This document shows, one piece after another, positions 30,853 to 35,535 of a DNA stretch of 64,000 nt. The notes under the pieces were generated by a model, which saw only the letters and a program-made list of their open reading frames with translations, searched no databases and was not told the DNA's origin. Every line of letters starts with the position of its first letter. The first letter of the stretch is position 1. This DNA comes from a virus (taxonomy: Duplodnaviria; Caudoviricetes). The stretch covers positions 1 to 64,000 of IMG/VR virus record IMGVR_UViG_2875882051_000001. The stretch is one strand, 5' to 3'. Made by a program: the position numbers and the translations under genes.

Positions 30853-31266
30853 TTAGGGTATATATTTCTTCATTTTCCTTATTGCCTCATATTCCATTTG
30901 CTTGATCCTGGAGTAACTTAAATTTAATTTTTGTTCAACTCTCCAGTATTTCTTGCGTTCTATTAGCACAATCTGGATTATTTCCTTTTCTTCATCAGTC
31001 AGCATTGTAAGTGCATTGTCAATTCGCCTTAATTCTCTCTTTTTAACTGCCTGTTGTCTATATAATTCTTCTTTCTTTTCCATTAACGCTTCCGCTTGTT
31101 GCTCAACACTAGAAGTTATCTTGTAGGTCTTTCCTGTTCTTTCCTCTGTACCTTGTCCACTTACTCCTAATATTTCTTCCTCAAGTTCTTGGACTTTTAT
31201 ATCAATCTCTTGTATGTCTGCTTTAAGCTCTTTATATTTCCGTATCCTATATACTGTGTTATCCAT
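30853..31266 (-). CDS. Late transcription activator (ArpU/RinA-like)
   Basis: C-terminal sigma-region-4-like helix; end of early operon. Confidence 0.7.
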   Translation of the reverse strand: MDNTVYRIRKYKELKADIQEIDIKVQELEEEILGVSGQGTEERTGKTYKITSSVEQQAEALMEKKEELYRQQAVKKRELRRIDNALTMLTDEEKEIIQIVLIERKKYWRVEQKLNLSYSRIKQMEYEAIRKMKKYIP

Positions 31267-32765: not shown

Positions 32766-33773
32766 TTACACAACCAATCTTCTATATTCATTTTTAAGGT
32801 TTTCTTGAGATAGTTGCGCATATATTTGAGTTGTACTTGGGGTAGTATGTCCAAGAATGCCCTGCACACCTTCAATTCTCATTCCTGAATTTAATAACCT
32901 AGTTGCTTGGGTACGTCTAAATTTATGGCAATGTACCCTTTCACCTACTCCAGCTCTATCCTTTATCTTTGCTATTATTAATTGTAATGCTCTTACTTTT
33001 ATATGATTATGTGAACCTCTCTCTGATATAAATAAGTATTCTGATTCTCCTTCTCTTGATTTTAAATAGCCCTGCATGTGTAACTTAGCTCTTGTAGAAA
33101 AGAAAACTATTCTCTCCTTACTTCCTTTTCCAAATACTTTTATACTTCTCTCCTGCCAATTTATATCTTTTAATTTGATATTATCTAGTTCCGATATTCT
33201 GCACGCAGTACTGTCTAAAAGTTCAAATAGAGCTTTTTCTCTTTCAGTTATACACGCTTCTCTTAACCTCTCCAAATTTTCTGGTTGATAAGGTTGTAAT
33301 ATCACACGTGGTACTTTAGTTTGTTTCAATTTAAATGCAGGATTTTTAATTATATATTCTTCTGCTTGCAACCATCCGAAAAAGCCTTTAAGCATTGTTA
33401 TATATCCGTTAACTGTGGTAGCTTGTTTTTCTTTTCCCATAAAGGCCAAGAACATTCTCAAATCCATAGTAGATATAGTAGAACATGGTTTTGTAAAAAA
33501 TCGCTCTAATTTATTTAGAAATAATCTATAATTATCTAATGTCTTTTGGCTTAAACCTTCTAACTTTTTACAAGCTAAATATATAGCTGATTTTTCTTCT
33601 ATATCGCTTGCCACTAGATCAGTACATTTCGATGAAACTTCATAATCATATAAAGTTTCATCAATTGTCTTTTTAACCTCTAATTGCAAACTCAAATTTT
33701 GTTCTAAAACTGGTAATAACAAAGTTAATTTTCCTAACAATCTTATACTGGCTTCTTCATTTAGGTTGCTCAT
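32766..33773 (-). CDS. Second tyrosine recombinase (XerC/D-like)
   Basis: TACRISE, HKFRRT, ILGH, TQIYA catalytic residues. Confidence 0.88.
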   Translation of the reverse strand: MSNLNEEASIRLLGKLTLLLPVLEQNLSLQLEVKKTIDETLYDYEVSSKCTDLVASDIEEKSAIYLACKKLEGLSQKTLDNYRLFLNKLERFFTKPCSTISTMDLRMFLAFMGKEKQATTVNGYITMLKGFFGWLQAEEYIIKNPAFKLKQTKVPRVILQPYQPENLERLREACITEREKALFELLDSTACRISELDNIKLKDINWQERSIKVFGKGSKERIVFFSTRAKLHMQGYLKSREGESEYLFISERGSHNHIKVRALQLIIAKIKDRAGVGERVHCHKFRRTQATRLLNSGMRIEGVQGILGHTTPSTTQIYAQLSQENLKNEYRRLVV

Positions 33774-33820
33774 ATTATCAAATCCTTTCTTTAGTTTTTT
33801 GTAATCTTAATAAAATCATC

Positions 33821-33855
33821 TGAATACTTGTTTTAAAATTGTACATAATATAATT
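33821..33855 (+). promoter_or_regulatory. 35-bp repeat copy 1 with sigmaG-like promoter
   Basis: GAATA-17 bp-CATAATA; 34/35 identical to 33951-33985. Confidence 0.6.
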
Positions 33856-33890
33856 AGTTGTTGATTATATTATTATTTATAGAATCCATT

Positions 33891-33917
33891 ATGTGCCCTT
33901 TAATTAGGGCATATTTT
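33891..33917 (+). terminator. Terminator hairpin, array unit 1
   Basis: TGCCCT-TTAATT-AGGGCA then TATTTT. Confidence 0.6.
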
Positions 33918-33950
33918 GCGTTTAATTTTAGCATTGTGAATTAAATTATT

Positions 33951-33985
33951 TGAATACTTATTTTAAAATTGTACATAATATAATT
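33951..33985 (+). promoter_or_regulatory. 35-bp repeat copy 2 with sigmaG-like promoter
   Basis: GAATA-17 bp-CATAATA; 130 bp downstream of copy 1. Confidence 0.6.
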
Positions 33986-34048
33986 GACATTAGTTATGTT
34001 ATTGTTTATAGAATCCATTAATATTACTATTTATAGAAATCCATTTTT

Positions 34049-34071
34049 GACTCCTTAATTGGAGTCTTTTT
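34049..34071 (+). terminator. Terminator hairpin, array unit 2
   Basis: GACTCC-TTAATT-GGAGTC-TTTTT. Confidence 0.7.
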
Positions 34072-34206
34072 ATATAAATAATTATAGTTGTTAGAATTAT
34101 TTGTACTTATCCTTCATATAATGAAAGGAAACCTCTTGATTATTATTTTTTATCTTATAGTTACTCTCTTTTTGTAGATCTTTATACTTTTGTCCATTCA
34201 CTTTTG

Positions 34207-34231
34207 AGCTCCTTAAATTTAAGGAGCTTTT
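34207..34231 (+). terminator. Terminator hairpin, array unit 3
   Basis: AGCTCCTT-AAATTT-AAGGAGCT-TTT. Confidence 0.7.
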
Positions 34232-34414
34232 ATTATTCTTATCATGAATAATTTCATAAAATACTCATAAGCTAAGGATGTCTTCATAATCAGATCAGTA
34301 CTCCATTTTCAATCCATTTAATGTGGGAATATGATATTTTAATTACGTATTATTTAAGATATATTAACGTATAATATAAATACCCCACATATATTAATTA
34401 TCACATACATATAC

Positions 34415-34437
34415 GCCCCTTTATTGGGGCATTTTTT
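34415..34437 (+). terminator. Terminator hairpin, array unit 4
   Basis: GCCCC-TTTATT-GGGGC-ATTTTTT. Confidence 0.7.
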
Positions 34438-34462
34438 GTACTCATTTTCTACAGATTGAACA

Positions 34463-34654
34463 TTACTTATATATTATTGGTTCATTATCTTTCTTAGGAT
34501 ATTGTTGCAATATAATAGACTTCACATAACTGTAATTTATATGTCTATTTACATATTGCATATGGTCCACGTTGTTTTTTATAGTATAAGTTGTTTTACT
34601 CCCATCATTGCATTCTACAAATAACTTTTTCATAACCTTATTCCTTTTCCTCAT
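34463..34654 (-). CDS. Hypothetical protein
   Basis: ORF in early operon, coupled to upstream gene. Confidence 0.5.
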   Translation of the reverse strand: MRKRNKVMKKLFVECNDGSKTTYTIKNNVDHMQYVNRHINYSYVKSIILQQYPKKDNEPIIYK

Positions 34655-34889
34655 TTTTATTAATTTCTTCTAGATCTGTACCTTCAAACTCAACTTCTCC
34701 ACTTTCGTCCTTATCAAATTCAAGTATTTTCACATTGTTATCGCTTAAATATCCCTCAATATCATCTGGATGCATACCGTCTCTTTCCAAAACATCTAAC
34801 GCATACTCTACTTCAACATCTGAGTCAGCTTCAACTGTTAAAGTATGTCTGTAAACTACTTTTTCTTCTAATTCGATTTTAAATTTCAT
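34638..34889 (-). CDS. Acidic hypothetical protein
   Basis: ORF in early operon with RBS GGGTGGGG. Confidence 0.55.
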   Translation of the reverse strand: MKFKIELEEKVVYRHTLTVEADSDVEVEYALDVLERDGMHPDDIEGYLSDNNVKILEFDKDESGEVEFEGTDLEEINKNEEKE

Positions 34890-35535
34890 ATTTCCCCACC
34901 CTTTCAAATTCAATTACCCATACCCAAGGATTTTCATGCCACATATATTTGACTTGAGATTTATTTAGAGTGCTATTCCATAAATCTTCAAAAGCTGATA
35001 TATATTCACTTGCAGTAAATGAGTCAGTAATTTCAAAATCTAGCTTTATTCCTTCCTTTTTACATTCACCTGCTTCAATCATTTTTAATCTTTCAGGATA
35101 AATCTTTTTTATTTTTAGAAATATCCTTGCTGCTTCTTTCGGCATAAATAATGACGGCTGCCACTTTTCTTGATCTGCAAATTTATAGAATTTATTAAAT
35201 CTCTCTTTTGTAAAAGATATACAATCATTAACCTCACTATCTGCCTTATATTTAAAAGCTAGTGTATTAACTCCTCTTGAATGCGCCAACCATGTTTCTC
35301 TAACATAAAGTATGTCTCCAATTTCAAACTTGGGTTTGCACCAATTAATAGCACTGTATATTGTTCCAGCAACTGCATTAGATCTATATCCAAATTTGTA
35401 ATATTCGCCTTCATGTTCTAGTAGTTCTCTATTCCCAACATTCTTTATAATTCTTCTCGTGGTTGTTTTTCTTCCTTCAAGAATTGCCTTAACCATATCT
35501 GTATTAAATAAAATTGGTTTTTCCAATATTCTCAC
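34879..35535 (-). CDS. Conserved phage protein (ASCH/PUA-like)
   Basis: KPILFNTDMVKAILEGRKTTTRR...WQPSLFMPKEAARIFL...NPWVWVIEF. Confidence 0.7.
   Translation of the reverse strand: MRILEKPILFNTDMVKAILEGRKTTTRRIIKNVGNRELLEHEGEYYKFGYRSNAVAGTIYSAINWCKPKFEIGDILYVRETWLAHSRGVNTLAFKYKADSEVNDCISFTKERFNKFYKFADQEKWQPSLFMPKEAARIFLKIKKIYPERLKMIEAGECKKEGIKLDFEITDSFTASEYISAFEDLWNSTLNKSQVKYMWHENPWVWVIEFERVGKYEI

Follow-up and report, generated by a model that had tools for sequence, protein, structure and literature searches.

Candidate small-RNA units shared with Clostridium chromosomes form a plus-strand array in an intergenic gap of a provirus

The IMG/VR provirus record IMGVR_UViG_2875882051_000001 is 85 kb long (G+C ~30%), and its first 64 kb constitute the window, that is, the whole stretch of DNA that was analysed in this work. 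Nearly all genes of the provirus are carried by the minus strand. Here, we describe a gap of 0.69 kb between two of these genes (33774-34462), in which a row of four to five short units, predicted to be non-coding, lies on the plus strand, opposite to all neighbouring phage genes. The gap is flanked by minus-strand open reading frames (ORFs) at 32766-33773 and 34463-34654. In the sense of minus-strand transcription, replication genes (a DnaB-like helicase and a RusA-like resolvase) lie 5' of the gap, and phrog_15215, an ERCC4-type nuclease and a small sigma-like regulator lie 3' of it; the gap is thus the junction of the replication and late-regulatory genes. The features of the gap and its borders are as follows.

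32766-33773, minus strand: gene for an Xer-like tyrosine recombinase (NF040815, 220.6 bits against a cut-off of 220).
33806-33925, plus strand: unit U1, with a conserved upstream block, a -35-like GAATA at 33822-33826 and a -10-like CATAATA at 33844-33850.
33926-34075, plus strand: unit U2, a variant of U1, with a U1-type promoter block (GAATA at 33952-33956, CATAATA at 33974-33980).
34068-34240, plus strand: unit U3, with the conserved promoter block TAGAATTATTT...CATATAAT at 34092-34122.
34241-34337, plus strand: unit U4a, with GAATA at 34246-34250, a spacer of 17 nt and TAAGCTA at 34268-34274.
34338-34440, plus strand: unit U4b, with GTATT at 34347-34351, a spacer of 18 nt and TATAATA at 34370-34376.
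34463-34654, minus strand: gene for a 63-aa phage protein (phrog_32497), facing the 3' end of the array in convergent orientation.

The start codon of the recombinase gene is separated by 48 nt from the -35 element of U1, and transcription of the two would diverge. The predicted RNA of U1 (~60 nt, about 33857-33918) consists of an AU-rich single strand containing TTTATAGAATCCATT (33876-33890) and a terminator, that is, a hairpin at 33891-33914 followed by a T-run. The body of U2 contains an internal duplication of 25 nt, which gives two copies of the motif TTTATAGAA(A)TCCATT (34005 and 34030), and the U2 terminator (GACTCC/GGAGTC, 34049-34066, then a T-run) differs from that of U1. The equivalent of U2 is the first unit, here called U1', of the chromosomal arrays L052, L060 and L061 (loci are given L numbers and genomes G numbers), in which the terminator is identical and the motif is present in one copy. 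For U3, the predicted RNA is U-rich and ~105 nt long, with TCCATTCAC at 34193 and a terminator at 34206-34229 that is followed by a T-run. The body of U4a contains CTCCATTTT and ATCCATTTAA; because this unit has no terminator of its own, its transcript would extend into U4b. The predicted RNA of U4b (~55 nt) would start near ACCCCAC and end at the terminator at 34415-34430, which is followed by T6. The -10-like boxes of the last two units differ from those of the L052-type copies, with TAAGCTA here versus CAAACTA there in U4a and TATAATA here versus CATGATA there in U4b. When the RNAs predicted from the window are folded, each gives a long AU-rich single strand and then a hairpin, with z-scores between -2.1 and -3.8.

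A preliminary description of this stretch had reported the lack of a sizeable ORF, a duplicated 35-bp repeat containing GAATA-17-CATAATA, the recurrence of TTTATAGAA(A)TCCATT at three positions and four plus-strand hairpins with T-runs, and each of these statements agrees with our counts. Between 33773 and 34463, every ORF is shorter than 40 aa. The direct repeat extends over 60 nt (33796-33855 and 33926-33985, with a period of 130 and an identity of 85%) around a core of 34-35 nt with one or two mismatches. The sequence GAATA-N17-CATAATA occurs in the 64-kb window at 33822 and 33952 only, against 0.34 occurrences expected; since a single duplication made both copies, they count as one independent event. 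The motif is found at 33876, 34005 and 34030. Terminator-like hairpins on the plus strand number four (33891, 34049, 34206 and 34415), against 0.3 +/- 0.7 in shuffled sequences, and the same hairpin scan detected none on the minus strand of the gap. Promoter-like blocks are present 5' of every unit, and the modular arrangement of promoter, short body and terminator, antisense to the phage operon, is as originally proposed.

Six plus-strand copies of TCCATT lie within 434 nt (33885-34318), where the frequency of this hexamer in the 3.7 kb around it would predict ~0.24. The excess is due to a module, (A)ATCCATT, placed just 5' of the hairpin and common to U1, U2 and U3, together with two similar copies in U4a. 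The module also bears on the earlier remark that the 5' arm of every hairpin resembles an anti-Shine-Dalgarno sequence and is preceded by CAT. The resemblance is real, but it was overstated, as it results largely from the hairpins being built of G/C runs and from the TCCATT module. An inverted repeat in U4 (34321-34341 / 34370-34390) is left out of the structures considered here because it is not retained in the L052-type copies.

A scan of 33000-35200 with Rfam covariance models gave no match up to E = 5, and a DNA search of an annotated phage collection with the array gave none either. The element is not specific to phages, and its units are shared by host chromosomes. Each part of the array has three to six homologues per genome in four Clostridium genomes of ~6 Mb (G007, G008, G025 and G121). 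The chromosomal copies are ordinary intergenic DNA, with neighbours such as a MatE transporter, DUF6143 and a GNAT acetyltransferase, AraC regulators, or a nitroreductase and a dicarboxylate symporter. A replication origin or a packaging site was rejected as an interpretation of the array, as the same units occur in such chromosomal DNA.

The units recur in various combinations. Homologues of U1 that are 79-91% identical over the whole unit are present in the phage locus L004 and in the chromosomal loci L065, where the unit is single, and L078, where it occurs three times, one copy (L078b) being visibly decayed. At least eight other proviruses have U1 at 79-88% identity (L105, L106, L109, L110, L113, L114, L115 and L118), and several of these also hold U1'-U3-U3 arrays. 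U3 stands alone beside the MatE gene in four species (L067, L068, L070 and L071), and U4b stands alone in L062 and L063, at 90-91% identity and directly 5' of a gene for a secreted protein (see below). At the DUF6143 locus, three species have retained the units in the order U1'-U3-U4 (L052, L060 and L061, ~80% identical to the window), and U3-U4 is found at two further loci (L051 and L053; L054). The closest relationship is that of U4, which is 98% identical between the window and the chromosomal locus L051. The limits of homology run from the start of the promoter block to the end of the terminator T-run. Thus, the search for the same scaffold with variable inserts and covarying stems, which the preliminary description had recommended, succeeded at homologous loci.

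Within the phages, the array appears to be dispensable cargo. Of the 34 IMG/VR loci that encode a related recombinase, L004 alone, whose recombinase is 96% identical, shares array DNA, and it has a single copy of U1, located as in the window; none of the proviruses with U1 listed above (at least eight) belongs to these 34 loci. In most relatives, 25-230 nt separate the recombinase gene from the preceding one, and some relatives have other inserts. One contig assembled from an RNA run (run X4) joins 33800 to 34448 without the 647-nt array, with perhaps ~48 other letters in between, and so a sister form of the prophage that lacks the array exists in that sample. Because the array is absent from nearly all relatives and from the sister form, we regard it as accessory cargo in a variable spot. 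As the units are also found in host chromosomes, this cargo is not specific to the phage.

Other features were noted around related recombinase genes and in the late region. A second, similar Xer-like recombinase is encoded outside the window (G000:C1, ~73672-74761), and here the inverted repeat AGGTGTTC-N4-GAACAC(C/T) occurs on both sides of the gene (L002, L085 and L090). A third copy of this type of inverted repeat is located at 65109, and the window's recombinase copy lacks it. The same repeat, of the 8-7-8 type, lies immediately 5' of the recombinase in L007, L017, L034 and L040. The AGGTGTTC-type inverted repeat could be a recombination site or a family of terminators. In another branch of relatives (L025, L027, L031, L043 and L030), a hairpin of ~60 nt (GCAACCTAAGTTA...TAACTTAGGTTGC, with a T-run on the antisense strand) is placed directly 5' of the recombinase start, and beyond it (L025:3519-3734) is an oppositely oriented gene for a protein of 65-71 aa, which by eye resembles a regulator with an XRE-type helix-turn-helix. 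On the late side of the window, a 137-aa protein (30853-31266, minus strand) matched only sigma-70 region 4 and phrog_36 (transcriptional regulator); it is probably the phage late-gene activator.

Alignments of the unit bodies argue for a non-coding nature. Insertions and deletions of 1, 2 and 4 nt, which are not multiples of three, are found throughout. Among the homologues, short ORFs range in length from 0 to 35 codons on both strands, the ATG has been lost from two copies of U1, and nearly all differences between copies change the amino acid. The minus-strand mini-ORFs reported earlier do exist in the window, but they are not conserved in the homologues. In an alignment of 14 U3 sequences, the terminator is the sole conserved structure, with seven base pairs, two of which show compensatory changes. 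The copies of U1 have at least four different terminator stems around a conserved TTAATT loop, with the pairing kept in each.

The promoters of U1 and U2 belong to a recurrent class, GAATA-N17/18-CATAATA, and this class also precedes neighbouring protein genes. Among homologues, the U1 promoter block is conserved well past the two hexamers. A search for G[ACT]ATA-N17/18-CAT.[ACT]TA returned 54 matches in 1.5 Mb of strand searched, and most of them are situated either before U1-type units or 45-50 nt 5' of the ribosome-binding site of a gene for a secreted protein. These secreted proteins form a family of ~105 aa, with a signal peptide and a domain of roughly 80 aa, whose members share 23-54% identity. 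The family was matched by no model of Pfam, PHROG or NCBIfam, and its members are annotated as hypothetical proteins in C. beijerinckii, C. diolis, C. saccharobutylicum, C. saccharoperbutylacetonicum and C. butyricum. Multiple copies of the genes occur across the C. beijerinckii group, in genomes as well as in prophages (for example, L109:3807-5219, L078:519-833, L053:1101-1430 and L062:1690-2007), and every one of them has a promoter-like site, G[AC]ATA-N17/18-CACATAATA, on its 5' side. Moreover, they directly adjoin units in both chromosomes and prophages, and the gene and the U1' promoter overlap at the stop codon in L109 and L075.

The strength of this connection differs among the units. 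With a weight matrix trained only on the promoters of the secreted-protein genes, the U1 and U2 promoters rank second and third in the 85-kb provirus, and U3, U4a and U4b are outside the top 25. Judged by these scores, strong membership of the gene-promoter class is confined to U1 and U2. Note that the U1-type promoter block is also found fused to the bodies of U3 (L051 and L053), U4a (L064) and U4b (L082). The best match of the matrix in the provirus is located at 71-100 of the window on the plus strand (AAATATTTCAGTAACATTTTCCAAATACTA), at the extreme left end of the record.

As for the sigma factor, U1 and U2 agree exactly with the sigmaG type (-35 GnATA, 17-18 nt, -10 CATnnTA), as do many homologues, and U3, U4a and U4b agree with it loosely; this wording of the forespore consensus was taken from general knowledge and PMC3789822. 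According to the latter, CATATAAT, which is part of the U3 promoter block, is a -10 box of sigmaK. CATA-type -10 boxes fit sigmaE and sigmaK as well as sigmaG, being characteristic of the mother-cell factors too, and TTGAAT-18-CATAAT scores 9/12 as a sigma-70-type (sigmaA) promoter. In the upstream regions of control genes of G007, namely, 10 genes for small acid-soluble spore proteins (SASP), gpr, spoVAC and spoIIR, no clean GAATA-N17-CATAATA was found. U1 and U2 lean toward a sporulation sigma factor because the C of CATAATA is nearly invariant at a position where T would make a better sigmaA box. From these promoter comparisons, we consider it about evenly balanced whether a sporulation sigma factor reads U1 and U2, and rather doubtful that the factor would be sigmaG specifically.

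The control regions have a feature of their own. All ten G007 SASP genes (L092-L101) share a strongly conserved upstream block, TTTTTATAGATTATATTTTGTGATAGTGGTTAATATATTA, in which GATTA-N17-TAATATA resembles the GATTA-N17-AATGATA found 5' of spoVAC (L128). This GATTA-type block may be the local form of a forespore promoter, unlike the U1 type.

Our preferred reading, which we hold with somewhat better than even confidence, is that the gap is an array of four to five independent non-coding units, candidate small-RNA morons common to host chromosomes and prophages. It draws on the observed signals and their strand, the family relations of the units, the absence of coding potential, the accessory status of the array and the promoter class shared with the secreted-protein genes. 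Each unit would comprise a promoter, an AU- or U-rich body of 55-150 nt and an intrinsic terminator, and would belong to one of several small paralogous families, which the phage carries as accessory cargo at a hypervariable site that separates its replication genes from the Xer-like recombinase gene. Each RNA would be a long single strand with the terminator hairpin at its end, and the UCCAUU or C-rich stretch just 5' of the hairpin could pair with Shine-Dalgarno and start-codon regions. Owing to the orientation of the array, the RNAs would also be fully complementary to any minus-strand transcript reading through from the replication genes into the recombinase gene and the late regulators, and such read-through could be damped either by antisense pairing or by transcriptional collision. 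For U1 and U2, the CATA-type -10 box suggests that a sporulation sigma factor would drive this transcription.

Several results weigh against this reading. In the contigs from RNA runs, the depth over the array is flat and equal to that over the recombinase gene. In two raw-read RNA runs that carry the same species label and lack this prophage, 12-19 reads per run were recovered, all on the L051-like paralogue of U4 (98% identical); these reads come from both strands, about half of them extend past the terminator, and they could be background or DNA. Neither the flat depths nor these few reads speak for or against expression. With RNAduplex, the best pairing energies of the five predicted RNAs with 120 translation start regions of the phage did not surpass those of shuffled RNAs, in what was a crude search that ignored accessibility. 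In G007, the complement of the U1 motif (up to three mismatches) matched 11 times, compared with 10 times for a reversed control. Thus, the silencing of translation starts in trans, as originally suggested, finds no backing in either search. The orthologous arrays of the three species are 91-93% identical, which is no better than the third codon positions of the flanking genes, the species compared being too close for this test of selection. Furthermore, no conserved RNA structure was found outside the terminators, either in the U3 alignment or in the folded RNAs of the window. Finally, no member of the secreted-protein family was found in the window's provirus, and the U4a -10-like box is weaker here than in the L052-type copies; for these two reasons, part of the array could be left-over DNA.

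This last point can be extended to the whole array, which would then be the debris of decayed morons: promoters, untranslated regions and terminators left over from an island that once had genes for the ~105-aa secreted proteins (lost since or never captured by the phage), and without function in the phage. Units indeed adjoin secreted-protein genes with the same promoter type, or directly follow their stop codons (L109, L110, L115, L105, L106, L075, L053, L062, L063 and L078), and the provirus has no such gene. A degraded -10-like box in U4a and the decayed U1 copy L078b are also what one would expect of debris. However, arrays that contain no gene persist with intact promoters and terminators at corresponding loci in the chromosomes of three to four species (L052, L060 and L061; L067, L068, L070 and L071), and terminator stems of the units keep their pairing through compensatory changes. 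U1 has been retained beside the recombinase in two phages and duplicated in the window, and the limits of the units run from promoter start to terminator end, as expected if the whole unit is what is retained. Because the orthologous arrays are conserved no better than synonymous sites, we still regard debris as a possibility to be reckoned with, if an unlikely one. The position of the array invites a further explanation, a DNA-level element of the Xer-like recombinase, in which the repeats and hairpins would serve as sites of recombination or arm-type binding, or would have been captured beside the recombinase gene as integron-like cassette ends. The array abuts the start of the recombinase gene, the homology with the second recombinase copy of the record ends abruptly at 33803, and exactly this stretch is missing from the sister form; the DNA 5' of the recombinase differs in almost every relative, and some relatives have an 8-7-8 inverted repeat there (AGGTGTT-N7-AACACCT type). 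This inverted repeat, however, is absent near the window's recombinase gene, and the units also occur in prophages that do not have this recombinase and, far away from any recombinase, in host chromosomes. In addition, the four hairpins have four different sequences with no common core and have T-runs on one side only, as in terminators, and the recombinase scores 72.8 bits with the integron-integrase model TIGR02249, far under the cut-off of 265 bits. We consider such an element improbable. An integron cassette array proper was rejected, as the recombinase is Xer-like, the stems are short and perfect, with differing sequences and T-runs, and units lie far from recombinases.

Two further explanations would place products on the minus strand, at least in part, and both can be traced to the preliminary description, which had offered a micropeptide array and a decoy for CsrA as alternatives. 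Short peptides, or a set of type I toxin-antitoxin (TA) modules, would be translated from minus-strand mini-ORFs with a Shine-Dalgarno sequence and ATG or from hydrophobic plus-strand mini-ORFs, under antisense control. On the minus strand, Shine-Dalgarno-like sequences do lie 5-8 nt 5' of ATG or GTG at three hairpins, and some mini-ORFs are hydrophobic, such as one of 18 aa in U4b that has an equal length in L052. Nevertheless, the hydrophobicity is a consequence of the sequence being T-rich, and the Shine-Dalgarno-like G-runs are simply the 3' arms of terminator stems. Given the unconserved ORF lengths (0-35 aa) and starts, the lack of ATG in two U1 copies, the almost exclusively amino-acid-changing differences and the frame-shifting insertions and deletions, the units are taken to be non-coding, and both the peptide and the TA versions are therefore rejected as very improbable. 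For a CsrA-titrating decoy RNA, the argument was the abundance of ANGGA on the minus strand. There are indeed nine copies in 617 nt, compared with 1.7 in composition shuffles (0/2000 reach nine), an excess of ~5-fold over local composition; but the window's own minus-strand rate predicts 4.7, and the excess over the phage coding strand is thus only ~2-fold. Most of the copies lie opposite the conserved TCCATT module or opposite hairpin arms, whose complement they form, and the plus strand has only three. The decoy fails because ANGGA is on the wrong strand: the promoter blocks and T-runs identify the plus strand as the one that is transcribed, and a minus-strand transcript of the chromosomal copies would be no more than antisense RNA to the adjacent genes. 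We give this explanation hardly any credence.

Returning to the array of small-RNA units, a more far-reaching version of it can be formulated. The units may make up a mobile toolkit of sporulation-timed small RNAs, with a common promoter/terminator scaffold and interchangeable single-stranded bodies (U1, U3, U4a and U4b) as variable seeds, which would be swapped between Clostridium chromosomes and prophages together with the secreted-protein family under one sigma factor. With the prophage copy, the phage would then be able to disturb the expression of genes in the spore as it develops, or to stop its own early-to-late read-through there. This version is speculative, and we think it improbable in its entirety.

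If the units are transcribed, they would constitute three to four new small-RNA families, absent from Rfam, of the solvent-producing C. beijerinckii group, and an instance of a prophage borrowing regulatory RNA genes from its host. The common promoter class ties the units to an uncharacterised family of secreted proteins and thereby points to a concrete regulon, possibly a sporulation-specific one, in a host clade that is industrially used and whose post-transcriptional control is little known. Even if the array is silent debris, the locus would be a recombination hot spot beside an Xer-like recombinase gene, at which intergenic DNA is exchanged between phage and host.

The preliminary description had stated that no described system has this layout, which is too strong, since tandem small-RNA families and small-RNA phage morons are both known. 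Type I TA modules of prophages, such as BsrG/SR4 of the Bacillus subtilis prophage SPbeta and the prophage modules of C. difficile, are similar in being small promoter/terminator units in accessory regions of prophages, with several copies in chromosomes and phages and an antisense RNA, but the array has no conserved toxin ORF. CsfG of Bacillus subtilis is a sigmaF/sigmaG-dependent small RNA of the forespore and is encoded by a single conserved chromosomal gene. The array units would likewise be small non-coding RNAs expressed from a forespore-type promoter in an endospore former, but no homology with CsfG was detected, they form a modular, multi-copy family common with prophages, and their sigma dependence is only predicted.

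The LhrC1-5 RNAs of Listeria monocytogenes are a tandem, multi-copy small-RNA family of Firmicutes. As in LhrC1-5, the units of the array are short and arranged head to tail, with a separate promoter and terminator for each (U4a lacking the latter), paralogues are present elsewhere in the genome, and C/U-rich stretches in or near the terminator could pair with Shine-Dalgarno regions. The array differs in having UCCAUU instead of UCCC as its motif, three to four unrelated bodies under related promoters, a location in a prophage and no match in Rfam. Another close parallel is provided by the small-RNA phage morons of E. coli, namely, DicF of the Qin prophage and AgvB, AsxR and StxS of Shiga-toxin prophages. 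Unlike these, the array is known from sequence alone, and its units have close paralogues in the host chromosome, stand four to five in a row and run antisense to the phage operon. Like them, the units are self-contained from promoter to terminator, lie between phage genes, are non-coding as far as the alignments indicate and are absent from close relatives, in keeping with elements that are dispensable for the phage in those systems. The candidate small-RNA families described here are new, having no match in Rfam, and the kind of element that they would represent is already known.

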